The notes beneath the pieces were generated by a model, which saw only the letters and a program-made list of their open reading frames with translations, did not search any database and had not been told where the DNA came from. A program made the position numbers and the translations under genes. 32,000 nucleotides of DNA, from the NCBI RefSeq assembly GCF_000765475.1, contig NZ_JRHO01000014.1:61574-93573 (forward strand). The letters run 5' to 3'. This document shows, piece by piece, positions 13,145 through 30,239 of the stretch (its first letter is position 1; each line of letters starts with the position of its first letter). The stretch comes from Methanococcoides methylutens (lineage in GTDB: Archaea > Halobacteriota > Methanosarcinia > Methanosarcinales > Methanosarcinaceae).

Positions 13145-14329
13145 ATGTCAAAGAAAGTAGTACTTGCTTATTCCGGTGGATTGGACACATCCATCTGTAT
13201 CCCCCTCCTCAAAGAAGAATACGGATACGACGAGGTCATAACCGTAGCAGTCGATGTGGGACAGCCAAAGGAAGATGTCGCACAGGCAGAAGAGAAGGCA
13301 AAGAAGATCAGTGACCTTCATTTCACCCTTGATGTTCGCGAGGAGTTCGTGAACGATTACATTTTCCCTTTAATAAGAGCCAATGGTGATTATGAAGGCT
13401 ATGTTATGGGAACCTCCATTGCACGCCCGCTTATTGCCAAAAAGGTCGTCGAGATCGCAGAACAGGAAGGCGCTGTTGCACTTGCACACGGTTGTACCGG
13501 TAAAGGAAACGACCAGCTTCGTTTCGAGGCTGTGTTCAGGCTCACTGATATGGATGTCATCGCACCTATGAGAGAGATGAACCTGACCCGAGAATGGGAG
13601 ATCGAATACGCAAAGGAACACGGTATTCCAGTAGGTGTCACCACTGCAAAGCCATGGAGCGTTGACGAGAACATCTGGAGCAGAAGCATCGAGGGCGGAA
13701 AGCTCGAAGACCCTGGATACATCCCACCTGAGGAGATCTACAAGTGGACAGCTTCACCTGAAGATGCACCTGATGCACAGACCATCGTGATCGGTTTCGA
13801 GAACGGTGTGCCAGTGTCACTTGATGGTGAGAAGATGGACGGTGTTGAGCTCATTGAAAAGATGAACGTCATTGCAGGCACCCACGGTGTCGGACGTACT
13901 GACATGATCGAAGACCGTGTCCTCGGACTTAAAGCACGTGAAAACTACGAGCACCCTGCAGCAACCGTACTCCTTGCAGCACACAAAGACCTTGAAAAAC
14001 TGGTCCTCACCCGCTCTGAACTCAAGTTCAAGGCAATGGTAGACGAACAGTGGTCCGAGCTTGCATACTACGGTCTTGTGGACGAACCACTCTACGATGA
14101 CCTGAATGCATTCATTGACAAGACACAGACACGTGTAAACGGTACAGTCACCATGAAACTGTACAAGGGAAGCCTCACAATTCTTGCAAGGACATCCCCG
14201 GCAGCACTCTACTCAGAAGAACTTGTGTCCTTTGATGGAACAAGCATCGACCAGAAGGACGCCGAAGGATTTGCAAAATATCACGGATTCCAGGCACGCC
14301 TGTTCAGGAAATTCGTTGATAAGAACTAA
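13145..14329 (+). CDS. argG: Argininosuccinate synthase
   Basis: ORF 13070..14329; ATG at 13145 starts the canonical N-terminus [40 protein letters not shown]. Also [17 protein letters not shown] and [12 protein letters not shown]. Confidence 0.97.
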
Positions 14330-14340
14330 AATTAATTACT

Positions 14341-14376
14341 CGTATGCGGTTGTCGCATACGGGCTTCTTTTTTCTT
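14341..14376 (+). terminator. Putative intrinsic-like terminator after argG
   Basis: Perfect 8-bp inverted repeat CGTATGCG-gttgt-CGCATACG (14341-14348 / 14354-14361) immediately followed by a T-rich tract. Confidence 0.7.
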
Positions 14377-14742
14377 TTGTTGGTCTTGATTTGGATTGTT
14401 CTAAATTTATTACCCGGCTACTCATACTGTTTAAACGCATATTTTAAAACATACCCCAATTCTTAGGGTATGTTGCACTGCACTAACCCAAAAAAGTTAG
14501 AATCACTTCCCCCGCACAATCTTGCGGGGATATAGGTAAGTTGAATTTTTTGTACGAGATTGTGTGAATTGTTTGCACAACCTGTCTGTAAACATCTAAG
14601 AGAATCTAGCTATACTATTTTGGATGCTAATCAATTACAAATAAAAATATTATATATTATTATGTTATTACTGGTAATGTAAACTCTAATAACAAATTAT
14701 TTTTCTCGTTAAAATTTTGTGGTTATATTTGAAGGTAATATT

Positions 14743-15708
14743 ATGAACAAAATTGACATAGTTCCAGCTTGCAAAGGGATAATAACTAATTTAGACTTAT
14801 TAAAATCAGAAGGTACACTTCAATTTACTACGAGTCTTAGTGACTTAAAAGCTGGAGGAATCATTTTTGAAGTAAGTGGACCAGAGTTCAGCTTCATATT
14901 TGGTTCAAACGAAAAAGGACTTTTTGTAAAAAGAAACGAAGTTTTTTCAATATTGACTTATGATGATATAAAAGAAACCTCAGTAGAACCAATGATTTTT
15001 CTGACTTGGTCCTACAATAAAATTTCATTATATTTTTGTAGTGAAATTAAACATAAAAAAGCAGAAGCTCCAACAAAACCCTGTTCTCCTCCTCCATCAT
15101 TAATTAAATGGGCACGTAAACAAAATTTACTCCCAATGGTTGAATATGAAAGTGAGGAAAAATTACGCGAAAAAGTATATTCATGTTTGTTATCAATACA
15201 AGACAAAATTGATGAATATGGTGCAATAAATCCTTTTTGGGACATTAGTTATTCTGGTAAGAGTATTGTTAGCAGAACACCTAAAAAAGAAACAGATGTT
15301 CAACCTGTAATCAGCCTTTTGCTGTCGGATCAAATGCTAATGGCTGGAATAGAAGTTATACCTGAATATCAAACGGGCAGAGGTAATTTGGATTTTATGT
15401 TTATGGGGAATGTAAAAGACAATGGTATAACTAAAATATGTGCAGAATTTAAAAATGCTCATTCAAAAGATTTGTTTCATGGGCTTGAAAATCAACTTCC
15501 CCTCTATATGAAAAATCGTGAATGCAATTATGGGGCATATTGTGTCTTAAACTATAAAGGGGAATGGTTTACTAAACCTGACACATTTGAAAATAAATTG
15601 GATGTGGAACTCTCTATTCATCAAAGCAAATCTATCAATCCATTAGTCCATAACGGTATAAGGTGCTTTATATTTTCATTATCAAAAAAGAAAACTGCTA
15701 GTAAGTGA
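14743..15708 (+). CDS. Hypothetical protein with PD-(D/E)xK nuclease-like C-terminal motif, in AT-rich segment
   Basis: ORF 14719..15708; ATG at 14743 has an upstream GAAGGT SD-like motif. Motif EVIPEYQTGRGNLDFMFMG...KICAEFKNAHSKDLFHGLENQLPLYM fits E..D-x(n)-ExK (D codon 15391, ExK codons 15445-15453). Confidence 0.6.
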   Translation: MNKIDIVPACKGIITNLDLLKSEGTLQFTTSLSDLKAGGIIFEVSGPEFSFIFGSNEKGLFVKRNEVFSILTYDDIKETSVEPMIFLTWSYNKISLYFCSEIKHKKAEAPTKPCSPPPSLIKWARKQNLLPMVEYESEEKLREKVYSCLLSIQDKIDEYGAINPFWDISYSGKSIVSRTPKKETDVQPVISLLLSDQMLMAGIEVIPEYQTGRGNLDFMFMGNVKDNGITKICAEFKNAHSKDLFHGLENQLPLYMKNRECNYGAYCVLNYKGEWFTKPDTFENKLDVELSIHQSKSINPLVHNGIRCFIFSLSKKKTASK

Positions 15709-15819
15709 AATTATTATATAACATCCGAAACTATTTTGTAACCTAGACAAACTATTATACCCATATATGTTTTAATCCTTTTAGCAATAGGAATAGATAG
15801 GCGATAATTTTTGCATAAA

Positions 15820-16218
15820 TTAAGAAACGTCTATCTTTTTCCCCCATCCATCTAATCTCTCCCTAACATGAGCATTGAGAGTAAACGTGTTCTCACTTCT
15901 GACATTTTGCTTCATATAATGCAACGTACCTTTTGAGAAACCCATCTTCTTCCATTCAGTGTAGGATATATCAATGATCTTCTTCCTCAAATCATCCGAA
16001 TCATACCTTTCAATCTTATAGGAGGGCTTAACAAACTCAATCGTTTTCCTCTTCCTAACAAGATGATGACTCAACTCTCTCGCCTTAACCAACAGGATAG
16101 ATCCCCAGGAACTATTCTTTTCCCTGTACTCAACCTTCCCGTTAACCACATCATCTTCATAAACATAATACTGAGCAAACCTTGTTTTGATACTCGATAC
16201 ATTTTTATCGAATATTAT
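15820..16218 (-). pseudogene. Probable 5'-truncated cas1 remnant (C-terminal part of CRISPR-associated Cas1 only)
   Basis: Open frame from the stop codon at 16219-16221 down to 15820. It translates as IIFDKNVSSIKTRFAQYYVYEDDVVNGKVEYREKNSSWGSILLVKARELSHHLVRKRKTIEFVKPSYKIERYDSDDLRKKIIDISYTEWKKMGFSKGTLHYMKQNVRSENTFTLNAHVRERLDGWGKKIDVS, which resembles the C-terminal end of methanogen Cas1 proteins from recall. No Met start precedes it and no N-terminal domain is present. Confidence 0.5.
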
Positions 16219-21606: not shown

Positions 21607-21850
21607 CTAACTCCCCAGTAGATCTGATAGGCTGCAAAGTGTTCATAGCCCGGAATAAAGACTGGATCGAAATGCATTCCCCCAACTGTAGATGCATCCC
21701 AATATTCCCGTTATGATATGTTGAATATCTATATATAGAACATTTAATATAAGCTTTTATACAGACGGGGAATTCAAAACTGGCATCGGTAGACTAAAAT
21801 ATTTACATGCTGCCAAATATTTTTAAAAACTGCTGGCAGGAGGAATGATC

Positions 21851-22672
21851 TTGGGGTATATTATATTTACAGATCTTGATGGCACTTTAATAGACCATGA
21901 TACTTATTCTTATGAAGCAGCAAGGCCTGCGCTTAACCTGCTAAAACAAAAAGATGTACCTCTAATTTTCTGTACCAGCAAAACCCGTGCAGAGATCGAA
22001 GTCTATGTTGAGGAACTGGACTGTCGCCATCCCTTCATATCAGAGAATGGAGGAGGCATCTTCATACCGAAAGGATATTTTGATATTGATCTGAAGTTTG
22101 ATCACAGGATCGGGGACTATAATGTCATAGAACTTGGAACCAACTATTCCAATCTAAAAGATGCCCTCGTGGAGATTAGCAAGAGCGCCGGTATTGAGAT
22201 AATCAATTTCGCAAACATGACCACTGAAGAAGTAAGTGAGGATACAGGACTCGATATTCACTCTGCAGGACTTGCAAAGCTACGCGAGTATGACGAGGTC
22301 TTCCGGATAATTGATGAAACTGAAGAAAAAGCCTCCCTGATGATGGAACTTATAAGATCTGCAGGGTACAACCACACCAGAGGTGGCAGATACTGGCATA
22401 TTATCGGGAACAACGATAAAGGCAAAGCTGTCAGGATGCTAAGTGACATCTACAGAAAGCAGTTCACTGATATCACTACAGTAGGTCTGGGCGATAGCCT
22501 GAATGACCTGCCAATGCTGGGATCTGTGGATATACCTGTTCTTGTACAAAAGCCGGGCAGCTTACACGACCCATCAATAACCGATCCGAAAATAAAGCGT
22601 GTAAAGGGTATCGGACCCATAGGGTGGAACAATGCAGTCAGCGAGATAATAGAGAAGGGGTCTGAAATTTAA
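21851..22672 (+). CDS. gpgP: HAD-family mannosyl/glucosyl-3-phosphoglycerate phosphatase
   Basis: YIIFTDLDGTLIDHDTYSYEAARPALN, FISENGGGIFIPKGYF, VGLGDSLNDLPML, VKGIGPIGWNNAV. The supplied ORF starts at ATG 21845, but AGGAGG at 21838-21843 is spaced better for TTG 21851. Confidence 0.85.
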   Translation: MGYIIFTDLDGTLIDHDTYSYEAARPALNLLKQKDVPLIFCTSKTRAEIEVYVEELDCRHPFISENGGGIFIPKGYFDIDLKFDHRIGDYNVIELGTNYSNLKDALVEISKSAGIEIINFANMTTEEVSEDTGLDIHSAGLAKLREYDEVFRIIDETEEKASLMMELIRSAGYNHTRGGRYWHIIGNNDKGKAVRMLSDIYRKQFTDITTVGLGDSLNDLPMLGSVDIPVLVQKPGSLHDPSITDPKIKRVKGIGPIGWNNAVSEIIEKGSEI

Positions 22673-22699
22673 TTTTAAGAACATAAAGGGGTACATGGA

Positions 22700-23230
22700 A
22701 TGATACGAATTGAGAATATGATATCAAGAGCCTTTTTGATAGGGATTATCAAGATGGTGGACAAGAATGGGGTCCAGAATGCACTGGAATGGTTACGTGA
22801 GATCGGGGAAGAATTAGCTGAGATCGAAGGACCTGGATTTGAAGGTGCTCGTGAAGATGACATTAACTATTTGCCGGTCTGTCCGTTTTCAAATACTCTC
22901 CTTGATTTTATAGCGATATATGGAGAGAGACCATCACAATTCGTAGAACTTGTAAACCTTTCCAACAAGCAAATGATGGAGGCAGAAGATGGATGGGAAT
23001 ATCCGGCACTGACAACTGTCACAGGCATACTTCATCACAGCTACATTAAAAAACGAGGATTGTTGGCAGGTGTTGAACTTCTTAACGTGGGATCAAGATG
23101 TCCCCGTACCAACAATATAGTCTACAACGAAAAAGCCCTTGAAAAAGCAAATATGACAAAAGAAGATGTGGATAAGTATCTTGAAAAAGCATATTACGTT
23201 TGTAAGATCAATTACCTTAAAAAGGAGTGA
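22700..23230 (+). CDS. Hypothetical protein, between gpgP and GH15-like gene
   Basis: ATG at 22700 with GGGGT 7 nt upstream. Tight spacing with gpgP, and its stop overlaps the next ORF start region. Sequence includes INYLPVCPFSNTLLDFIAIYGERPSQFVELVNLSNKQMM..SRCPRTNNIVYNE. Confidence 0.75.
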   Translation: MIRIENMISRAFLIGIIKMVDKNGVQNALEWLREIGEELAEIEGPGFEGAREDDINYLPVCPFSNTLLDFIAIYGERPSQFVELVNLSNKQMMEAEDGWEYPALTTVTGILHHSYIKKRGLLAGVELLNVGSRCPRTNNIVYNEKALEKANMTKEDVDKYLEKAYYVCKINYLKKE

Positions 23231-23235
23231 ATTCT

Positions 23236-24459
23236 TTGAACCTGATCGAAGCTGAAAAACTCTACGAGAACAGCGTAAAGATCCTGAAGAACAACCAGCA
23301 TGAAAAAGGAGGATTTTATGCAAGTCCGCCAGGAACACGATATCCTTTTATCTACCCTCGAGACCACTCGGTGGCAATACTTGGCTGCATTGATGCCGAA
23401 ATGCTGGACGAGGCCAGAAGGGGTCTTGAATTTGTCCTGAACTCCCAAAAGCCCCTGGGAGAATTTTCCCAGAGATATGATGTTGACGGAAATGACGCCA
23501 GCTACAAGGACCTGCAGATCGATGGGAACGGACTGGTCCTTTTTGCAATGGGAAAATATTTCGAAGCAACGGGCGGACTCTTCTTTGAATCGATGGCCGA
23601 CAGGACTTTTGTGGAAAAGCACTGGGAAACTGTCAAGAAAGCCGTTGAGTTCATACTGATGAACAAGAACGAAGAGGTCGACCTGATCCATACCGTGAAC
23701 AGCATCCACGAATATCCCGCCTACGAGCATGGTTTTGAGATCTATGCCAACTCTGCCTGTTGTGCAGGGATCCTCGCAGCAGTAAAAATGGGAGAAGCTC
23801 TTGGTGAAGATGTCGCCAACTGGAAAGCTGAGGCTGAAAAGATAAGGGAAGCCATTCTTACACGGATGTATAGCCCGCGTAGGCGCTCATTTATCAAATG
23901 TATCCGTGTAAAAGAGAAAAGCAGCAACCCTATCGGATATGATGCATTCGCCTCAAGCGTCATCGATGTGGATGTTGTGGAATACGCACCTGCATATTTT
24001 GAGCTCATCGATCACCATGACATAAAGAATCGTTATACTGTCAGGAGGATACATGATAGGCTCTGGGACAAAGAGATCGGAGGCTTGAACCGCTATCCGG
24101 AAATGTGGGACAGGAATAACGGAGGATATGGCCCATGGTGCCACTTCACCTGCCAGCTTGCAAACCATTATATTGCTATTGATGACCAGGATATGGCAGA
24201 GATGTATATGGGCTGGGTAGTGGATATGGCACACAACTACCTCCTGCCTGAACATATCTCAACAATTGAAAGGTTTGAGATATGGCATGAAGACTATACC
24301 AACGCAAAGATCCTCAGGGATAGTAAACTCACCATGATCGAGAAAGTGCGTAACCATCCAAAATGGAAAGACGGGATGGCATACGTAACGATACCCCTGA
24401 TATGGCCTCATGCAGAGTATATCAGGACTTACAAGAGCTATATTGAGAAGTTTGGATAA
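23236..24459 (+). CDS. GH15-like glycoside hydrolase (glucoamylase/(alpha/alpha)6-barrel family)
   Basis: KGGFYASPPGTRYPFIYPRDHSVAILGCIDAEMLDEARRGLEFVL, YKDLQIDGNGLVLFAMGKY, GLNRYPEMWDRNNGGYGPWCHFTCQLANHYIA. ORF given from GTG 23227; TTG 23236 has better SD spacing. Confidence 0.75.
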   Translation: MNLIEAEKLYENSVKILKNNQHEKGGFYASPPGTRYPFIYPRDHSVAILGCIDAEMLDEARRGLEFVLNSQKPLGEFSQRYDVDGNDASYKDLQIDGNGLVLFAMGKYFEATGGLFFESMADRTFVEKHWETVKKAVEFILMNKNEEVDLIHTVNSIHEYPAYEHGFEIYANSACCAGILAAVKMGEALGEDVANWKAEAEKIREAILTRMYSPRRRSFIKCIRVKEKSSNPIGYDAFASSVIDVDVVEYAPAYFELIDHHDIKNRYTVRRIHDRLWDKEIGGLNRYPEMWDRNNGGYGPWCHFTCQLANHYIAIDDQDMAEMYMGWVVDMAHNYLLPEHISTIERFEIWHEDYTNAKILRDSKLTMIEKVRNHPKWKDGMAYVTIPLIWPHAEYIRTYKSYIEKFG

Positions 24460-24601: not shown

Positions 24602-25378
24602 TCAGAGCGGGAGACAGACCTTCCTTTGTACGGAACTAACATGATCGATAGCAACATCGATCCCATATGCAAGTGTCATGTTCTCTTTTGTTATTACTTC
24701 TTCAGCAGTCCCCTGAGCTATGAAATTATTCTCAAGCATTATGGCAACATTTTTTGAACCTATAAAAGCATGATCCGGGAAATGTGTGCTCATTATTACA
24801 GAAGTCCCCTGAGAAGAAAGTTTGTCAATAAGGTTCAAAACACGTACCTGGTTCCCAAAATCCAGATGGGATGTCGGTTCATCCAGGAGCAATATTTCCG
24901 GTTCCTGAGCCAGTGCCCTTGCGATCAAAGCCAGTTGCTTTTCACCACCACTTATTTCTGTGACAGAACTATCCATCAGATGAGAAATGCCTACTTTAAC
25001 GATGGCATTTTCCGCGATCTTAAGATCCTTTTCGCCCGGAGAGGAGAAAAAAGGAAGATGCGGTGCTCTGCCAAGCATTACAAAATCCAGAATGGAAAAG
25101 GGAAATACCGACTGATCTGCCTGTGGGACATAGCCTATCTTTTTAGCTATCTCTGTTCTGCTCATCGAAGAGACATCCCTGCCGTCAATATATGCATTCC
25201 CATTACTCAAATTCAGCACGTTGCCAAGGCATTTGATCAGGGTTGATTTACCTATCCCGTTCGGACCAAGTATGCATAAGGTTTCACCTTTATTTAAAGA
25301 AAAAGATATGTTCTCAAATACATTCTTCTTCCCGTCATACGAATATGAAGCATTGTTCACTCTTAAGATCATGACCAA
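24602..25378 (-). CDS. ABC transporter ATP-binding protein, FecE/BtuD type
   Basis: Walker A LGPNGIGKSTLIKCL, signature SGGEKQLALIARAL, Walker B ILLLDEPTSHLD, H-loop STHFPDHAF. Overlaps the permease gene. Confidence 0.95.
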   Translation of the reverse strand: MVMILRVNNASYSYDGKKNVFENISFSLNKGETLCILGPNGIGKSTLIKCLGNVLNLSNGNAYIDGRDVSSMSRTEIAKKIGYVPQADQSVFPFSILDFVMLGRAPHLPFFSSPGEKDLKIAENAIVKVGISHLMDSSVTEISGGEKQLALIARALAQEPEILLLDEPTSHLDFGNQVRVLNLIDKLSSQGTSVIMSTHFPDHAFIGSKNVAIMLENNFIAQGTAEEVITKENMTLAYGIDVAIDHVSSVQRKVCLPL

Positions 25379-26478
25379 CCAACCTTCTTTCTTTGTAAAA
25401 GATAAGCAAAAAACGGAGCTCCTATTAGTGCCGTAAGAACTCCCAGGGGAATCTCTATACTCATTAAACTCCTTGCCAGATCGTCCACCACCAAAAGGAA
25501 GGATGCACCAAGGAAAATTGACATTGGCAAAAGCTTTTTGTGCTCAGGCCCGACGATCATTCTTGCAATATGAGGCACAACAAGACCAACCCATCCAATG
25601 ATCCCGCTTATACTGACTGCGGAAGTGGTGATCAGAGTAGCACAAATTACAACCAATATTGTCATTTTCCGGGTATCTATTCCCAATGATTTTGCCTCGT
25701 CCTCTCCTAAAGAAAGTATATTGATGCGCCATCCGATTAGAACTAAGATAAGCATAGAGACCAGCATCCCGGGTGCTACATAGACAAGATCATCAAACCG
25801 GACAGAGGACAGGCTTCCCATAAGCCAGAATACCATCTCAGGAAGCTTGTCGTATGGATCTGCAACATATTTTACCAGGGATGTCAAAGCAGTGAAAACC
25901 GCACCTACAATAATACCTGAAAGCACCAGGACCAATGTAACCGTTGCCCTGCAGAATCTGCTCAGACCGTAGGACAGAAAAGCTGCAGATAAACCAAAAG
26001 AAAACGCCATTAATTGGATCATGATTATGTTCTCACTTATCAGGATACCAAAACAAGCGCCAAACCCGGCACCTGCTGCCACACCCAGAATATGGGGAGA
26101 AACCAGCGGATTGCGGAAAAGCCCCTGGAAAGAAGCTCCAGATACTGATAATCCAGCACCTACCAGCATGGCGGCAATGATCCTTGGAAGACGGACCTGA
26201 AATATTACAGTATCCACATTTGAAGAGCTTGCAGGATCCACCGACACAAAAAGCGAAACGATCAGGGATACCAAATGGGAAACAAGGCTGCTCATTATAG
26301 TAAGCGGAGGAATCGAATACCTCCCAATGAAAAAGGAGAATCCAAAAAGAAAGACCATAAGGAAAAATACAAGGAGAATCTGATTATTACTACCAGACAG
26401 CCTGTGAATGATCCACCATAACCTTGAACTTTTTTTTATTCCAGTATCAGACACCATATCAAACCCATATCCTAACAT
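25369..26478 (-). CDS. FecCD/BtuC-family ABC transporter permease
   Basis: RLPRIIAAMLVGAGLSVSGASFQGLFRNPLVSPHILGVAAGAGFGACFGI, GEDEAKSLGI, SISGIIGWVGLVVPHIARMIVGPEHKKLLPMS, GIPLGVLTALIGAPFFAYLL (IEIPLGVLTALIG in this protein). Multiple TM segments. Confidence 0.95.
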   Translation of the reverse strand: MLGYGFDMVSDTGIKKSSRLWWIIHRLSGSNNQILLVFFLMVFLFGFSFFIGRYSIPPLTIMSSLVSHLVSLIVSLFVSVDPASSSNVDTVIFQVRLPRIIAAMLVGAGLSVSGASFQGLFRNPLVSPHILGVAAGAGFGACFGILISENIIMIQLMAFSFGLSAAFLSYGLSRFCRATVTLVLVLSGIIVGAVFTALTSLVKYVADPYDKLPEMVFWLMGSLSSVRFDDLVYVAPGMLVSMLILVLIGWRINILSLGEDEAKSLGIDTRKMTILVVICATLITTSAVSISGIIGWVGLVVPHIARMIVGPEHKKLLPMSIFLGASFLLVVDDLARSLMSIEIPLGVLTALIGAPFFAYLLQRKKVGWS

Positions 26479-26508: not shown

Positions 26509-28251
26509 TTACTTAGATGAAGCACCGTAAAAAGACCTGTTCTGCCTTGAAGGATCAAAGGAAAAACCATAGAACTTTTCATAAAACCGGTTTGCTTCCT
26601 TTTCAATGTCAAAATCAAAGATATCCGGATGCAACTTGTTTGCGATATACATCAGTCCCAATATCCATCTCGGACTTCCGAAATCCCAGGATGGCCGAAG
26701 GCCGTATATCTGTCTGCTCTTTACAGCATCTGCCGAAAGACCATGCTTTTCACAATAATCATATGAATCGGAAACAGGGGTTGAAAGAAAACCGGATATG
26801 AATATAAATTCAGGATTCATTTCGGCAAATTCTTCCTGAGAAATATTAACTCCGGGTTTACCCTCTCTCTTGATCAGCTGATTTACACTTTCCCCGCCGG
26901 CAGCTTCAACAAGATTGTTCTCAATACGCTCTCCGTTGAGCGCAAAAAGAGGATATCCCATAGAATAATAAACCCGTGGCCTTCCAGTGTTTTTTACTCC
27001 CGACCTGATAAGGTCCAGTTTCTCCTTCATATAATCCACAAGTTCCATTCCTTCCCTTTTTTTGTCTGCAAGGGCGGCAAAATGCTCAATTACATCAAAA
27101 TAGGAATCAAGGTTCTGTGAACTGGTATGAAGCTCCTCCAAATATCCGGTTTCCATGACATTTAGCCATATTTCGGCAAGTTTCCTGTCGTCTCTTATCC
27201 CAAGGCAGATCAGAATCGCATGGATCATCTCCAGAGCCCGGGTAAGCCTGTATCCTCCCATAAAACCCGGTTCATGATGATTTTTTTTGCTGATGTAGCC
27301 CCTGAAAAGATCCGGGACGGAGCATTCACATTTTCCTTCAGGCAGGTATGCTATTGTGCGTGAACCCATGGGACCGAAGAACTCCCTTTGAAAAATCACC
27401 TGACCACATTCGGGACATACCGTATTCAAATATTCGGTACCCGGAGAATTAAACAAATAGACATAAGTAAGATCTTGCCTTAATTTGTCACACAGAATTT
27501 CAGCGTCCCTGATCGTTGGTTCGATCTGCGGGACTGCATCCCCAAAAGGCACAAACCTCATAATCTGGAACGGTATATCCTTTGAAAGAGAAAAAACATA
27601 TTTAGCAGTATTTATAACCTCATCTTCTGAACCTTTGATGTAGATGGTAGAAACTTCAACATGAACATCACTTTCATTCAATAGTTTCAGATTCCTGAAA
27701 ACAGGTTCTGAGCTTTTGACCCCGCAGGAAATATATCTTTCATCGGAGAAGCCTTTTATTCCGACATTTACAAAATCAATTAACGGGATAAGTTCTTTTA
27801 ATGCGCTTTCTGCAAAATAGCCATTTGTTGAACACCCGATAAACAGGTCGTTTTCCTTAGCCTTTCTGGCAAGGTCCTTAAACGTGAAAAATGAAACGAT
27901 CGGATCGTTAAGACAAAAAACGATCCCGATACAATCTTCCTCAAGAGCTTTTTTTATTACCTGGTCATTACTCATTCCGCCATTCTTTTTACCTGAAACA
28001 AGCCGTGAAGCAATGATCTCTGATACGCAACCCTCACATTTAAAATTGCAGCCAATGGTACACACCTGCAGGAATTTTCCTCGTGGATGAAAATGAAGGA
28101 TCGGAACAGTTTCAATAGAAATTGGCAGCATCGTAAAGTAGTTGCATGGGAATCTCTCAACGATCTTATCGCCCTCAATGGCATACATACGACATTGGCC
28201 ATATTTTCCTTCTGCGATATTGCAACCGATCTCACATATGGTGCATTGCAT
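26509..28251 (-). CDS. Radical SAM protein (AmmeMemoRadiSam/PflA-like) fused to the C-terminal portion of a Fe/B12-type substrate-binding protein fold; predicted cytoplasmic
   Basis: N-terminal CTICEIGCNIAEGKYGQC, then CTIGCNFKCEGC (CX3CX2C radical-SAM motif, codons within 28027-28062). C-terminal RVYYSMGYPLFALNGERIENNLVEAAGGESVNQ..VNISQEEFAEMNPEFIFISGF..WDFGSPRWILGLMYIANKLHPDIFDFDIEKEANRFYEKFYGF resembles the C-lobe of Peripla_BP_2 proteins. No signal peptide. Confidence 0.82.
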   Translation of the reverse strand: MQCTICEIGCNIAEGKYGQCRMYAIEGDKIVERFPCNYFTMLPISIETVPILHFHPRGKFLQVCTIGCNFKCEGCVSEIIASRLVSGKKNGGMSNDQVIKKALEEDCIGIVFCLNDPIVSFFTFKDLARKAKENDLFIGCSTNGYFAESALKELIPLIDFVNVGIKGFSDERYISCGVKSSEPVFRNLKLLNESDVHVEVSTIYIKGSEDEVINTAKYVFSLSKDIPFQIMRFVPFGDAVPQIEPTIRDAEILCDKLRQDLTYVYLFNSPGTEYLNTVCPECGQVIFQREFFGPMGSRTIAYLPEGKCECSVPDLFRGYISKKNHHEPGFMGGYRLTRALEMIHAILICLGIRDDRKLAEIWLNVMETGYLEELHTSSQNLDSYFDVIEHFAALADKKREGMELVDYMKEKLDLIRSGVKNTGRPRVYYSMGYPLFALNGERIENNLVEAAGGESVNQLIKREGKPGVNISQEEFAEMNPEFIFISGFLSTPVSDSYDYCEKHGLSADAVKSRQIYGLRPSWDFGSPRWILGLMYIANKLHPDIFDFDIEKEANRFYEKFYGFSFDPSRQNRSFYGASSK

Positions 28252-28253
28252 AT

Positions 28254-28907
28254 TTATTCCACCTTCCTGAACAGTATCCAGAAACCGGATTCATCTTCTA
28301 TTATCTCATAATGCCCTATTTCGGCAGTTAACAGCGCCTTTTTAAAAGAGTCGAGTTTGGATCGTTCCAATCTTTTTGCGGCAGTTTGGGACCAGTTCTC
28401 ATCCCTTTTTTCCATTTCCCGTGTGATCTTTGACTTCAGTTCAGCTGTTCCGAAGCCACCCCCTATATAGGCTGATCCACCGGGTTTCAGTACCCGGTAT
28501 ATCTGCCTGAAGGCTTCAGGCACATTTTCCCAGAAAAAGAGGGAACCACGACTTACGATCAGCTCAGCAAAGTTATCATCAAAAGGCATGTCATGAACAT
28601 CCCCCAGTACAGGGATCACCTTCTCGTCGAGGTTGCCTGAATCAATCCTTTTCTTTGCTATAGCAACCATTTTTTCAGAGAAATCCATTGCATAGACCTG
28701 ACCAACCATGATCTTGCTAATGGCAATTGCAAGTGATGCGGGACCACTGCCCACATCAATGCAAATCCCACTGTTGATATTGCACCTGTCTATAATCTGC
28801 TCTGAAATAACAGGATATATAGGTGCAAAGACATTGGTCGCAACATCTTCAAACTCTTCGGCATAATCATCATGAAATCGAACTTTATCACTTGATCTGT
28901 CTATCAT
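28254..28907 (-). CDS. Class I SAM-dependent methyltransferase
   Basis: ICIDVGSGPASLAIAISKIMVGQVYAMDFSEKMVAIAKKR, VLGDVHDMPFDDNFAELIVSRGSLFFW, IYRVLKPGGSAYIGGGFG. Almost abuts the radical SAM gene. Confidence 0.9.
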   Translation of the reverse strand: MIDRSSDKVRFHDDYAEEFEDVATNVFAPIYPVISEQIIDRCNINSGICIDVGSGPASLAIAISKIMVGQVYAMDFSEKMVAIAKKRIDSGNLDEKVIPVLGDVHDMPFDDNFAELIVSRGSLFFWENVPEAFRQIYRVLKPGGSAYIGGGFGTAELKSKITREMEKRDENWSQTAAKRLERSKLDSFKKALLTAEIGHYEIIEDESGFWILFRKVE

Positions 28908-28936: not shown

Positions 28937-30019
28937 TTAATTGGATTTAGAAGCTGGATTCAATAGTTCATCCAACTCAGTTCCCGACAGTTCATAGTGA
29001 TAGAACTCTGAATAGAATTCCTTAACAAAACCCCTGAGGTCAAGATCGCTGAACTCTTCCGGATACAGCACTTTGGCTGTCCATGGTATACCGATTATCC
29101 TGTTCACTCCCGGTGGCCTGTCAAACCAGCAAAAAGGAGCATCCGGGAATAGATATACCTCATGGTCCTTTACCGCAGTGATATCATGCCAGAGAGGGTC
29201 TTCATATATATTTTCATAGAAGTCACGGTCACCTGTGATGATGACTTCAGGATCCCATTGCAATACCTGTTCGATGGATACCTCTGACCTTCCGTATCCT
29301 ATGTCAAGCGGACATTCTGCTACGTTGATGCCACCACATATTTCGATCAATTGACTGTGGGGAGAGCCCTTAGGATCTGTCAGCAGCCCTTCCGGACCTT
29401 CTGCATAATAGACACGCTTCCTTTCATCTTCAGGTATCTGTGAGACCTTTGTAGTGACAGTGTCAAGTGTTCCTTTATAGAAAGAGATTAATTGCCCTGC
29501 CCGTTCTTCTTCCCCCAGAAGTTCACCCATAAATCGTATTGGTTCTTCATAGGCCGTGGCATCGGTTGTCGATTCAATACCTACAACAGGAATTGTACCA
29601 AACTTTTCCTGTCTTGCATTGATAGTAGAAGTAACATCCCCTCCGCTATTGTAGCCTTCAAAGACAACATCAGGACCGATAGATATAATGGTTTCATAAT
29701 TTCCATCCTGTTTACCAAACCACCCGCCAATCACAGGAACAGCCTGGTACTCTGGTTTCAGATATGTTTCCGATTCCTGTGGCAGAAAATTCCAGCCTGC
29801 CAATTTATCGGGAGCCAGCATGTAAATGAGCATTGTTGCAGGAGGAGAGGTAGCAACTACTTTGTTCACATCGGCTGGAATTTCAACTGTCCTTCCTGCC
29901 ATATCGGTTATCGATATTGTGTTCTGCGCATAAGTTTCTTTTTGATCAACACATGCGCTTGAGCATACCGCAAACAAGACCACACATATCAATAAAATGG
30001 ATCTGAATTTTTTATTCAT
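28937..30019 (-). CDS. ABC transporter substrate-binding protein (Fe3+/B12/metallophore type, Peripla_BP_2), probable lipoprotein
   Basis: Signal region MNKKFRSILLICVVLFAVCSSACVDQ (lipobox-like SSAC). ITDMAGRTVEIPADVNKVVATSPPATMLIYMLAPDKLAGW, ISIGPDVVFEGYN, QLIEICGGINVAE, FDRPPGVNRIIGIPWTAKVLYPEEF. Confidence 0.9.
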   Translation of the reverse strand: MNKKFRSILLICVVLFAVCSSACVDQKETYAQNTISITDMAGRTVEIPADVNKVVATSPPATMLIYMLAPDKLAGWNFLPQESETYLKPEYQAVPVIGGWFGKQDGNYETIISIGPDVVFEGYNSGGDVTSTINARQEKFGTIPVVGIESTTDATAYEEPIRFMGELLGEEERAGQLISFYKGTLDTVTTKVSQIPEDERKRVYYAEGPEGLLTDPKGSPHSQLIEICGGINVAECPLDIGYGRSEVSIEQVLQWDPEVIITGDRDFYENIYEDPLWHDITAVKDHEVYLFPDAPFCWFDRPPGVNRIIGIPWTAKVLYPEEFSDLDLRGFVKEFYSEFYHYELSGTELDELLNPASKSN

Positions 30020-30054: not shown

Positions 30055-30070
30055 ACATATTGCGATATGT
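30055..30070. promoter_or_regulatory. Short inverted repeat ACATAT-tgcg-ATATGT upstream of the ABC/radical-SAM operon, candidate operator
   Basis: Perfect 6-bp arms with a 4-nt spacer, 36-51 nt upstream of the start codon at 30019 in the minus-strand leader. Confidence 0.35.
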
Positions 30071-30239
30071 TTGGATGAACATAACGATAGATAAAGTTTT
30101 CTAAATGAGTCGAGATGCTAACAGGACCAAAAAGATTCTCAAAGAAGAAAAGAAAAGAAAAGAAAACCGAACAACTCGAATTAATCAAGCCAGTCTTTAA
30201 AAAAAGAAAGTGGAAATACAGATCAAAACATTTATGCCT

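Follow-up and report, generated by a model that had tools for sequence, protein, structure and literature searches.

A radical SAM enzyme fused to the C-terminal lobe of a class III solute-binding protein, encoded beside an ABC importer and a predicted ModE-type operator in Methanococcoides methylutens

In the genome of Methanococcoides methylutens a gene for a radical SAM enzyme runs on, in the same reading frame, into what looks like one half of a solute-binding protein, which raises the questions whether such a fusion is real, whether its binding-protein half is still in use, and what an enzyme might do with part of a transporter component. The window, i.e. the whole stretch of DNA analysed here, comprises 32,000 nt (GCF_000765475.1, NZ_JRHO01000014.1 positions 61,574-93,573, forward strand). 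The fusion gene is predicted to belong to a five-gene operon coding for a binding protein, a methyltransferase, the fusion protein, a FecCD permease and an ATPase, with the following features:

30063-30086, no strand assigned: predicted ModE-type operator, palindrome CGATATGTTTGGATGAACATAACG on the plus strand
28937-30019, minus strand: class III solute-binding protein of 'type A', predicted to be secreted or lipid-anchored; first operon gene
28254-28907, minus strand: class I SAM-dependent methyltransferase (Methyltransf_11, 9.7e-21)
26509-28251, minus strand: radical SAM/half-binding-protein fusion, 580 aa plus stop, one uninterrupted ORF
28192-28245, minus strand: N-terminal Cys4 motif (C3, C6, C10, C20), C-x2-C-x3-C-x9-C
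28027-28050, minus strand: CX3CX2C (C68, C72, C75), SAM-cluster motif
27322-27417, minus strand: C-terminal CxxC...CxC (C279, C282, C308, C310), conserved in at least 90% of 61 homologues
27316-28251, minus strand: radical SAM domain, residues 1-312 (from Pfam, TIGR04337 and Foldseek)
27061-27315, minus strand: helical linker, residues 313-397 (from secondary structure, pLDDT and invariant columns)
26527-27060, minus strand: binding-protein-like module, residues 398-575, backbone helix (398-419) plus C-lobe
25369-26478, minus strand: FecCD-family permease of a type II ABC importer (FecCD, 1.6e-89), present in 65 of 85 related loci
24602-25378, minus strand: ABC transporter ATPase (ABC_tran, 4.1e-32), present in 69 of 85 related loci

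The fusion gene is exactly the ORF delimited in the initial annotation (26509-28251, minus strand, 580 aa), and a Shine-Dalgarno-like GGAAGGTGG lies 7 nt 5' of its ATG at 28251. The cysteine strings quoted there, CTICEIGC...GQC and CNFKCEGC, correspond to C3/C6/C10/C20 and C68/C72/C75, respectively, and the segments RVYYSMGYPLFAL, MNPEFIFISG and SPRWILGLMYIANKLHPDIFD are all found in the C-terminal part of the fusion, as are their counterparts in the 360-aa binding protein encoded two genes upstream (28937-30019). A search for the same fusion in other methanogens and anaerobes, which had been proposed at the outset, recovered a single ORF of about 580 aa at 220 genome loci from methanogens, ANME-1, Desulfobacterales and Spirochaetota, and more than 500 protein clusters at 48-81% identity, with divergent subfamilies keeping the same architecture. 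Likewise, the gene is a single ORF in two close relatives (L007, L008) and, of the 80 loci inspected for a possible artefact, in the majority, and the AlphaFold model of the entire protein is confident and compact (pLDDT 90.9, pTM 0.91). The fusion of a radical SAM enzyme to one binding-protein lobe is genuine. Its family is large, and its members are already in databases under the name 'radical SAM protein', both Pfam domains being precomputed for them; a full-text search found no paper on the family, and the earlier remark that there is no characterised precedent is right as far as the literature could be searched.

With respect to the N-terminal part, the Pfam domain Radical_SAM (PF04055) matches residues 65-217 (3.3e-12; 47.3 bits against a gathering cut-off of 29.5), and the cysteines of the N-terminal and the SAM-cluster motifs are invariant among 61 homologues. 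Motifs and profile score thus place the protein in the radical SAM superfamily, and it is predicted to cleave SAM. The AmmeMemoRadiSam radical SAM model TIGR04337 matches residues 1-294 with an E-value of 6.7e-33; however, at 114 bits against a cut-off of 220 the domain is best classed as a paralogous relative and not as a member of that family. What it shares with the AmmeMemoRadiSam and PflA-type enzymes is the C-x2-C-x3-C-x9-C and CX3CX2C motifs and the overall domain over residues 1-294, whereas the 270 extra residues, the lack of AMMECR1/Memo partner genes (none in the Pfam-annotated neighbourhoods of eight loci, nor among the recurrent neighbour clusters) and the pairing with a class I methyltransferase and usually an ABC importer set it apart. 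The glycyl-radical activase models, too, give scores below their cut-offs (YjjW as the best with 45.8 bits against 250, PFLA with 25 against 232), and no glycyl-radical enzyme or PFL-like gene was found in the annotated neighbourhoods of the fusion loci. In a Foldseek search with the whole model the radical SAM part matches PflA-AE best, together with NifB and MoaA. The N-terminal part had been described as AmmeMemoRadiSam/PflA-like, which stands, and as ending at about residue 350, which does not: the domain ends near residue 312, and a stand-alone radical SAM paralogue aligns with residues 1-308 of the fusion. A protein of 387-393 aa encoded after this paralogue in Desulfobacterales was considered as a detached lobe and rejected, as neither BLASTP nor hhalign detected any similarity.

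The linker that follows is the least conserved region of the protein (mean pairwise identity 0.43) but has a set of invariant residues (E327, G329, GGYR 332-335, R338 and H375), and homology to binding proteins already begins with its last helix. From there on, residues ~376-575 are predicted to fold like a class III solute-binding protein from its backbone helix through its C-lobe. At the sequence level, residues 379-519 match positions 91-232 of the 235 positions of Pfam Peripla_BP_2 with an E-value of 3e-6 and 27.2 bits, which is 0.3 bit below the gathering score of 27.5. In addition, the fusion matches 4HN9 in a sequence search of the PDB (E 9.5e-11), BLASTP aligns the fused lobe with the window's own binding protein (26% identity over 204 aa, E 2e-9), and a profile-profile comparison by hhalign with the binding proteins of related loci gives 99.9% probability (E 1.8e-31). 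Modelled on their own, residues 376-580 reach a pLDDT of 91.6, and the best 50 Foldseek matches of this model in the PDB are all class III binding proteins, with 4HN9 as the best (query TM 0.80, rmsd 2.0 Å, 187 columns); the target TM of only 0.52 means that half of the target is covered. The combination of AlphaFold and Foldseek, by which it had been suggested to examine the C-terminal part, confirms for both the whole and the domain-only model that this region corresponds to a class III C-lobe with its backbone helix.

Compared to the two lobes of a class III binding protein, the fusion has the helix and C-lobe only. These superpose at 2-3 Å on the class III (cluster A) proteins 4HN9, TM0189/2ETV, 4PAG, MolA/HI_1472, CeuE, YiuA and BtuF, and a W-D loop and an SPR motif at a helix start are common to both; in contrast to these proteins the fusion is without an N-lobe and signal peptide. 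No hydrophobic N-terminus was found in a hydropathy scan of the fusion, where the maximum over 19 residues is 1.47 (0.04 at the N-terminus) as compared to 2.38 for the signal/lipobox segment of the true binding protein, and in place of an export signal the N-terminus consists of the invariant Cys4 motif. The protein is accordingly predicted to be cytoplasmic, and the claim that signal peptide and N-lobe are both missing has held up. As the whole model aligns with 4HN9 over 278 columns (target TM 0.59-0.61) as compared to 187 columns (0.52) for the lobe alone, the model suggests that the upstream parts of the fusion may be located where the N-lobe would be.

Conservation in turn bears on whether the lobe is still in use. 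With a mean pairwise identity of 0.53 the fused lobe almost equals the catalytic domain (0.55) and is under strong purifying selection. In BtuF, Glu72 and Glu202 are the conserved glutamates, one per lobe, that form salt bridges to the permease. At position 473, the equivalent of BtuF Glu202, glutamate is found in 90 of 90 neighbouring binding proteins but in only 44 of 76 fusions (58%); the window's fusion retains Glu473, the docking glutamate of the N-lobe being absent together with its lobe. Similarly, Trp478 and Trp535, invariant or nearly so in the true binding proteins, are relaxed in the fusions, and the invariant residues specific to the family lie in loops after beta strands of the fused lobe. 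By its pattern of conservation the lobe would be functional but repurposed. It is closer to a second binding-protein subtype (2ETV/TM0189-like, 74 bits) than to the window's own binding protein (43 bits); since the subclades of the fusion track the binding-protein subtype only loosely, no co-adapted specificity is claimed. A comparable arrangement in principle may be that of NifB, in which a radical SAM barrel with auxiliary Cys sites is joined to a NifX-like cofactor-carrier domain for a metal-containing cargo; the carrier domains are, however, not homologous, and the fusion lacks a nif context.

What the repurposed lobe might bind can be approached by way of the neighbouring genes. The methyltransferase gene, whose stop codon lies 2 nt before the ATG of the fusion, is found directly upstream of it in 73 of 78 loci. 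Its product has weak matches to the ArsM family and aligns over its full length with PDB 3DLC (MMP1179 of M. maripaludis, E 2e-61), for which a likeness to CouO and Coq5 and a substrate cavity of unusual size have been described (PMC5289526). CouO and Coq5 are aromatic C-methyltransferases, and this likeness of the orthologue together with its large cavity suggests a small-molecule substrate. The binding protein has a Peripla_BP_2 match of 3.2e-23, matches 4PAG (2e-54) and MolA/HI_1472 (3PSA, 1.7e-24) in the PDB, and starts with a hydrophobic N-terminus and a Cys-containing lipobox-like motif. The ATPase gene has a TTG start and overlaps the permease gene by 10 nt. Among the 41 loci with at least 5 kb of sequence on both sides, the set of binding protein, FecCD permease and ATPase is complete within 5 kb in 28, partial in 10 and missing in three, and no other gene family recurs in most of the related loci. 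The suggestion of the initial annotation that the fusion acts within the cytoplasm on the imported ligand, by capturing or modifying it, is strengthened by the methyltransferase beside it and the type II ABC importer nearby, by the strong purifying selection on the lobe and by the relaxed permease-docking glutamate.

As to the nature of this ligand, a ModE-type palindrome upstream of the operon is new in this analysis. Located 44 nt upstream of the start codon of the binding-protein gene and just 3' of an AT-rich TATA-like stretch, the site at 30063-30086 has one mismatch to CGTTATGT-N8-ACATAACG and is the sole such site in the window (0.09 expected); this consensus agrees with the E. coli modA operator, as read from NC_000913, at 15 of 16 positions. 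In all, 17 Methanosarcinales loci have the same box in this position, and it is also found 5' of two selenocysteine formate dehydrogenase genes that adjoin the module in Desulfobacula. In metagenomes, the exact motif precedes genes of ModA-type, ModE-like, MoeA, XdhC and FmdE proteins and is enriched for perfect palindromes (67/120). The operon promoter thus carries a ModE-type operator at which binding of the regulator is predicted; no gene for a ModE-family regulator was found within the 32-kb window. The box was found only in the Methanosarcinales modules and beside the Desulfobacula formate dehydrogenase genes, the loci of Methanomicrobiales and Methanococcus having other palindromes, of which the one 5' of the M. 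maripaludis genes was rejected as a signal because it is not above chance in AT-rich DNA. In five Methanoregula loci, two of them without other module genes, ModA/ModB/WtpC operons abut the fusion gene, although the confinement of this adjacency to one genus counts against a molybdenum or tungsten cargo, and one Spirochaete locus harbours a MOT1 molybdate transporter. A further pointer to these metals are the DUF364 genes in about 15 loci, a family that has been linked to Mo/W/Fe transporters (PMC2954201). Finally, the window has the composition of a MolBC-A-type importer, i.e. a MolA-homologous class III binding protein, a FecCD-type permease and an ATPase, and its operator matches that of the ModE regulon. 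The molybdate/tungstate importer MolBC-A (HI1470/71/72) itself, however, has no associated radical SAM enzyme or methyltransferase, and the window's binding protein is closer to 4PAG than to MolA. An iron chelate or corrinoid had been named among the possible ligands; the imported ligand as such has been kept, but not specifically one of these, since molybdenum or tungsten is indicated by the ModE-type operator, by the ModABC genes next to the fusion and by the likeness of the binding protein to MolA.

Our preferred reading, to which a probability of roughly 0.45 may be given, is that of a molybdenum/tungsten-regulated import module whose cargo the methyltransferase and the fusion enzyme would process in the cytoplasm; the operon is probably switched on when these metals are scarce. 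While cargo, composite binding site and chemistry are what we infer, the sequence of events might be as follows. A MolABC-like type II ABC importer, joined in Gram-negative hosts by a TonB-dependent receptor, would bring in a molybdenum- or tungsten-containing species other than plain molybdate, which is the task of ModABC, with a thio-oxyanion or else an organic chelate as candidates. Inside the cell the recycled C-lobe would no longer dock on the permease but, with the linker and the radical SAM barrel, form a site for substrate capture. The enzyme would cleave SAM reductively and direct the resulting 5'-deoxyadenosyl radical at the bound cargo, the methyltransferase, which is co-translated, might methylate the same molecule before or after the radical step, and the metal would then be released or turned into a usable form. 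Radical SAM chemistry and methyl transfer meet on an ABC-imported metal chelate in the anaerobic heme degradation by ChuW/HutW, and on an inorganic oxyanion in arsinothricin synthesis by ArsL and ArsM. However, ChuW is HemN-like and ArsL belongs to another radical SAM class, so that homology exists only at the level of the superfamily, and neither has a binding-protein domain. Furthermore, no radical SAM enzyme is known to act on molybdenum or tungsten species, and the nearest radical SAM relatives, PflA and AmmeMemoRadiSam, have proteins as their known or supposed substrates. The module genes are absent from the main text of the papers on M. voltae proteomics and M. maripaludis molybdenum transcriptomics.

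A more far-reaching version of this import-and-processing reading must be considered doubtful, namely that the module constitutes a new molybdenum/tungsten route of strict anaerobes, by which a non-molybdate species would be imported and its metal freed by the radical SAM/lobe enzyme and the methyltransferase. The cargo would then be a thiomolybdate or thiotungstate of sulfidic habitats or a 'molybdophore' complex, and the catalytic barrel of the radical SAM domain would take the place of the N-lobe of a binding protein.

Among the alternatives, the one that survives best, albeit as an improbable one, retains import and processing but assumes the cargo to be an iron (or nickel or cobalt) chelate or a tetrapyrrole. 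The enzyme pair would in that case anaerobically destroy or tailor a siderophore-like ligand or a heme or corrinoid, as a functional counterpart of ChuW/HutW or of the siderophore esterases and reductases. Indeed, the characterised ligands of Peripla_BP_2 proteins are Fe-siderophores, heme, B12 and Ni-His2, the characterised relatives of the binding protein mostly bind Fe-catecholates, Ni-His2, heme or B12, with only MolA binding oxyanions, and CeuE, YiuA (Fe with DHB-Arg-Ser), IsdE, BhuT and BtuF are among the structural neighbours. Moreover, O-methyltransferases occur in 10 loci, and in M. maripaludis the module has genes for ferritin and a ZIP transporter as neighbours, which counts against molybdenum or tungsten. 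Sets of a TonB receptor and ExbBD are found in loci of Spirochaetota and Desulfatiglandales; the receptor, which also adjoins CcsA/ResB-like heme-handling proteins, scores best against B12 and heme receptor models, but far below the family cut-offs. Against such a cargo, an Rfam scan of six loci (the window and five others) revealed no riboswitch, be it for cobalamin or any other, and, to our knowledge, Methanococcales and Methanomicrobiales make no heme. Above all, the operator and the ModABC, MOT1 and formate dehydrogenase neighbours point to molybdenum or tungsten instead.

Less likely still is a biosynthetic role, in which methyltransferase and fusion would make a small SAM-derived metallophore or cofactor that is exported and re-imported by the adjacent transporter, the lobe binding the product or a precursor. 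In line with this, extra methyltransferases are present in 10-13 loci, the larger Desulfobacterales clusters contain the stand-alone radical SAM paralogue and other enzymes, and one member of the DUF364 family, whose genes occur in about 15 loci, cyclises methyl-SAM (PMC12930334). However, the conserved core consists of two enzymes only, without an exporter or a scaffold-building enzyme, the transporter is of the importer type with a binding protein, and the three of 41 loci lacking a nearby transporter have nothing biosynthetic either.

It is very unlikely that the fusion is a protein-directed activase or maturase, e.g. for a transporter component or a molybdenum/tungsten enzyme, with the half-binding-protein module serving as a protein-protein docking domain. 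Such a role would fit its closest sequence families, AmmeMemoRadiSam and the glycyl-radical activases, and its closest fold, PflA-AE, but the scores for all these families are far below cut-off, genes for a glycyl-radical enzyme, AMMECR1 or Memo are missing from the annotated neighbourhoods, the partner methyltransferase resembles small-molecule C-methyltransferases, and the loops after beta strands of the fused lobe retain invariant residues and have gained others. Finally, that the fusion arose from an assembly or frameshift error, or is a pseudogene in decay, as might be read from an in-frame stop within the linker in three of 80 related loci and from frameshifts in the M. profundi gene, is refuted by the uninterrupted ORF with its ribosome-binding site, the confident model, the strong conservation of both halves and the recurrence of the architecture in archaea as well as bacteria, across hundreds of assemblies that are independent of each other.

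Molybdenum or tungsten enzymes such as formylmethanofuran dehydrogenase and formate dehydrogenase are required by methanogens, by anaerobic methane oxidisers and by sulfate reducers, all of which live in habitats where both metals are tied up as sulfides. M. maripaludis grows on tetrathiomolybdate and molybdenite, a dedicated uptake route not having been identified in that study (PMC11484787), beyond which no other work on molybdenum/tungsten acquisition from such forms by these organisms was found. The module is a concrete and genetically tractable candidate for such acquisition, in M. maripaludis as MMP1179-1183 with the structure of the methyltransferase already solved. If the more far-reaching version of the import-and-processing reading is true, the fusion would be a first in two respects, as a radical SAM enzyme that serves trace-metal acquisition and, among known enzymes, as one that binds its substrate by a class III binding-protein lobe. 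For enzymology the module would give the radical SAM superfamily a new type of substrate-recognition domain, and it would exemplify the recycling of a transporter binding protein into a cytoplasmic enzyme. Should some other metal chelate prove to be the cargo, the family would still be a large one that is conserved across two domains of life.

The protein of interest is encoded in an operon, listed here in the order of transcription:

28937–30019, minus strand: class III binding protein
28254–28907, minus strand: class I methyltransferase
26509–28251, minus strand: fusion of a radical SAM domain with half of a binding protein, 580 aa
25369–26478, minus strand: FecCD permease
24602–25378, minus strand: ABC ATPase

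In Pfam, Radical_SAM is found above threshold at fusion residues 65–217 (E = 3.3e-12), followed at residues 379–519 by the second half of Peripla_BP_2 (profile positions 91–232 of 235, E = 3e-6), the latter match lying, at 27.2 bits, 0.3 bit under threshold. The fusion is a member of the radical SAM superfamily, and in NCBIfam its residues 1–294 are nearest to the AmmeMemoRadiSam radical SAM enzyme (E = 6.7e-33, 114 bits against a cut-off of 220). Since neither its score nor its partner genes are those of the AmmeMemoRadiSam family, it does not belong there; an assignment as glycyl-radical activase was likewise rejected, as the NCBIfam scores for these enzymes are much lower still. For the C-terminal part, PDB sequence matches are solely with class III binding proteins (4HN9 at 9.5e-11, H. 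pylori CeuE and MolA), and the match with the secreted binding protein encoded two genes upstream, aligned by hand in the initial annotation, is borne out by 26% identity over 204 residues (E = 2e-9). No hydrophobic segment was found in the fusion, and the true binding protein of the window has a signal/lipobox at its N-terminus. Being cytoplasmic and possessing a single lobe, the fusion does not qualify functionally as a binding protein itself.

A ribosome-binding site (GGAAGGTGG) lies 7 nt upstream of the fusion ATG at 28251 and the methyltransferase stop codon 2 nt before it; the ribosome-binding site and the alignment of homologues support this ATG as the start. In the public gene call for this protein (P0001, 559 aa, 100% identity, 96% coverage), translation appears to begin at Met22 (window 28189–28251), which would drop the invariant C3/C6/C10/C20 motif.

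An AlphaFold model of the whole fusion, built with a 61-sequence alignment, is confident and compact (pLDDT 90.9, pTM 0.91). Class III binding proteins top its Foldseek list against the PDB (4HN9 at E = 2.9e-13; 4OVK, 4PAG, MolA and CeuE over about 200 columns at 2.6–3.0 Å), with PflA-activating enzyme, NifB and MoaA ranked after them for the N-terminal part. The class III lobe fold proposed for the C-terminal region was also recovered when residues 376–580 were modelled alone (pLDDT 91.6), the top 50 PDB matches all being class III binding proteins. The best of these, 4HN9, gave a TM-score of 0.80 when normalised to the query and 0.52 when normalised to the target (rmsd 2.0 Å), indicating that the region corresponds to half a class III binding protein, namely the backbone helix and the C-lobe.

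Two subtypes can be told apart among the neighbouring binding proteins: type A, which includes the window's own and resembles 4PAG and MolA, and type B, which resembles TM0189/2ETV (E = 3.5e-88). The fused lobe is nearer to type B than to type A (74 vs 43 bits; hhalign E = 1.8e-31 vs 2.2e-21). When fusions and binding proteins are aligned together, all 90 binding proteins but just 44 of 76 fusions have the counterpart of BtuF Glu202, the residue that forms a salt bridge to the permease; two Trp positions, kept by 83 and 85 of those 90, are not retained in the fusions. In turn, fusion-specific invariant residues (M431, P434, F436, N439, R442, E444, N457, GKPG 464–467, SGF 486–488, C500, WDFG 522–525) are placed in loops after beta strands, the side that faces the ligand cleft in binding proteins. 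This residue pattern fits a domain that has given up docking on the transporter yet still binds something specific.

With respect to gene neighbourhood, four partners recur across 85 related loci, and no others were found: a class I methyltransferase of 215 aa, seen in 81 loci, a class III binding protein in 70, an ABC ATPase in 69 and a FecCD permease in 65. In 73 of 78 loci, the methyltransferase gene directly precedes the fusion and is read from the same strand. For 41 loci the flanking DNA extends 5 kb or more in either direction; a full transporter lies within 5 kb in 28 of them, part of one in 10 and none in three. In Gram-negative hosts the module also includes a TonB-dependent receptor together with ExbB, ExbD and TonB, and genes seen now and then encode DUF364 (about 15 loci), O-methyltransferases (10) or a further methyltransferase (13).

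In Desulfobacula (L002 7171–7341, also L024, L025 and L026), a 56-aa Cys/His-rich ORF (MCDCNCQHPEKLKDKPENCTPQQVEECHGKTGDHPCTCH...) without Pfam or NCBIfam match directly upstream of the methyltransferase gene could code for a small metal-binding protein. Desulfobacterales also have a second, parallel module (L002 4210–6420; L087 4129–6329) in which a methyltransferase of 277 aa and a binding protein are joined by FecCD, an ATPase, a stand-alone radical SAM paralogue (340–348 aa, 31% identical to fusion residues 1–308) and a 387–393-aa protein of no detectable family. In Spirochaetota and Desulfatiglandales, the module is adjoined by a conserved set (L005 1549–6728; L088 3896–9017; L015, L064) of a TonB-dependent receptor, a 362-aa lipoprotein, a ResB-like membrane protein, ExbB/ExbD/TonB and a divergent CcsA-like protein with WGSPFRWGTRH replacing the usual WWD motif; that heme-handling-like proteins accompany a TonB uptake system is unusual. 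Elsewhere in the window, G + C content dips to 0.345 at 14001–16000 (about 0.44–0.49 outside), where a 329-aa ORF (14719–15708) has no Pfam match, and a HAD-family phosphatase, a 176-aa ORF without family and a GH15/mannosylglycerate-hydrolase-like protein, grouped at 21845–24459, may serve the compatible-solute metabolism of this halophilic methanogen.

Upstream of the first operon gene, the Methanosarcinales loci have in common an inverted repeat with the full form CGTTATGT-N8-ACATAACG:

30063–30086: putative ModE-type box, window copy with a single mismatch, 44 nt ahead of the binding-protein ATG

No other site occurs in the 32 kb, where 0.09 would be expected. In E. coli, the modA operator, which immediately precedes modA and reads CGTTATATTGTCGCCTACATAACG in NC_000913, matches the palindrome at 15 of 16 positions. 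In a scan of 1.44 Mb of fetched DNA allowing up to three mismatches, 17 of 21 sites lie ahead of the binding-protein gene in modules of Methanosarcina, Methanolobus, Methanomethylovorans, Methanohalophilus and the window, two precede formate dehydrogenase alpha-subunit genes flanking the module in Desulfobacula toluolica, and the others are E. coli modA itself and a stray. Formate dehydrogenases are Mo/W enzymes. An exact-match scan of metagenome contigs yielded 120 sites, 67 of them perfect palindromes against 25% expected; the 86 ORFs directly downstream include seven ModA-type binding proteins, five PBP_like_2, three to four ModE-like regulators (HTH_1 + TOBE) and single ORFs for MoeA, XdhC, FmdE and a xanthine-dehydrogenase-type [2Fe-2S] subunit, and 11 unrelated matches stem from a repeated integrase-bearing element. 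The match to the modA operator and the molybdenum-related neighbours thus identify the motif as a ModE-type operator.

The D. toluolica boxes (L002 10670–10693 and 15693–15716) lie one per formate dehydrogenase alpha-subunit gene; the two genes are convergent, beside the module and a DUF364 gene, and as each has an in-frame TGA in the canonical HCAR-U-HAPTV motif, their products probably contain selenocysteine. Within the metagenome loci (L090–L209), exact boxes also stand beside phage-integrase (11 ORFs) and amidoligase_2 (6 ORFs) genes and there apparently belong to a repeated mobile element that has nothing to do with molybdenum. In Methanoculleus (L032, L035, L037, L039, L049, L051, L059), a different conserved palindrome, TTAACAT-N7-ATGTTAA, is found upstream of the binding-protein gene, at the module promoter in Methanomicrobiales; it has the ATGT/ACAT core in common with the ModE-type box, in the opposite arrangement.

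As to the cargo, five Methanoregula loci, two of which have no other module gene, encode a genuine ModA (scoring above the NCBIfam cut-off), ModB and a WtpC-like ATPase right next to the fusion; a MOT1 molybdate transporter occurs in one Spirochaete locus, MolA is a homologue of the type A binding protein, and DUF364 has been tied to tungstate, molybdate and iron transporters (PMC2954201). We tentatively favour, with a probability of about 0.45, a metal-regulated and probably Mo/W-regulated import module whose cargo would be processed chemically in the cytoplasm. Against Mo/W, the box was seen solely in Methanosarcinales modules and beside Desulfobacula formate dehydrogenase genes, other lineages carry other, unassigned palindromes, ModABC adjacency is seen in one genus only, and the ligands of the binding proteins' characterised relatives are mostly Fe, Ni, heme or B12 chelates. 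The TonB receptors with CcsA/ResB-like neighbours also hint at a bulky cargo, perhaps tetrapyrrole-like or chelated. Fe, Ni, Co or a tetrapyrrole as cargo is the foremost alternative, although a somewhat unlikely one; speculatively, a chelated Mo/W species would reconcile both lines of evidence.

For the Mo/W import module, the cargo might be captured in a composite site formed by the fused lobe, the linker (invariants E327, GGYR 332–335, R338 and H375) and the radical SAM barrel, where it would be acted on by the radical SAM domain and by the methyltransferase, whose translation is coupled. PDB 3DLC, which is MMP1179 of M. maripaludis, is orthologous to the window methyltransferase (E = 2e-61), so that the fusion would be the next gene, MMP1180; MMP1181 is annotated as a binding protein. 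3DLC has been likened to the aromatic C-methyltransferases CouO and Coq5, its cavity being much larger (PMC5289526), which argues for a sizeable small-molecule substrate. A role of the two enzymes in biosynthesis instead of cargo processing is unlikely, and action on a protein substrate is less probable still.

The fusion is found in more than 500 protein clusters at 48–81% identity, all of about 580 aa, from Methanococcoides, Methanohalophilus, Methanosarcina, Methanothrix, Methanoculleus, Methanococcus, ANME-1, Ca. Methanolliviera, Desulfobacterales and Spirochaetota, and at 220 loci in a scan of species-representative genomes; the initial reading as a genuine fusion therefore stands, and an artefact is hardly conceivable. 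By its 79–81% identity to L006–L008 and L014, the window belongs to a Methanohalophilus-like organism. A lobe-only search of 1.8 billion representatives detected divergent subfamilies of the same architecture (28–30% identity in the lobe), and amongst 42 multidomain proteins radical SAM was the sole cytoplasmic enzyme partner, the others, Oxidored_molyb-like (5 proteins) and ModA-like SBP_bac_11 (2), being fused to full-length binding proteins. The lobe (residues 398–575) is conserved to the same degree as the catalytic domain (mean pairwise identity 0.53 vs 0.55), the linker being lowest at 0.43.

In three of 80 related loci, the fusion gene has an in-frame stop, always in the interdomain linker:

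L028, codon 354: TAA
L058, codon 362: TGA
L083, codon 360: TGA

Two of these replace one and the same conserved Trp (W362 in the window protein), and ORFs resume 34, 22 and 205 nt past the three stops; the loci may be natural two-gene split versions or pseudogenes. The MAG of L083 also carries an intact copy (L065). In Methanohalophilus profundi (L014 10001–11740, 81% identity), frameshifts near fusion codons 93 and 510 are due either to sequencing error or to a pseudogene.

Amongst known systems, NifB, in which a radical SAM domain is linked to one that holds the cargo, may be likened to the fusion in principle. ChuW and ArsL/ArsM perform radical and methyl-transfer chemistry on imported metal species, a combination that the module might parallel; specific homology of the fusion exists to none of them. 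NCBIfam holds no model for the fusion family, and no literature on it was found. The family is large, conserved and uncharacterised, with an unusual domain, and it can now be connected, in a concrete and testable way, to how methanogens acquire Mo/W.
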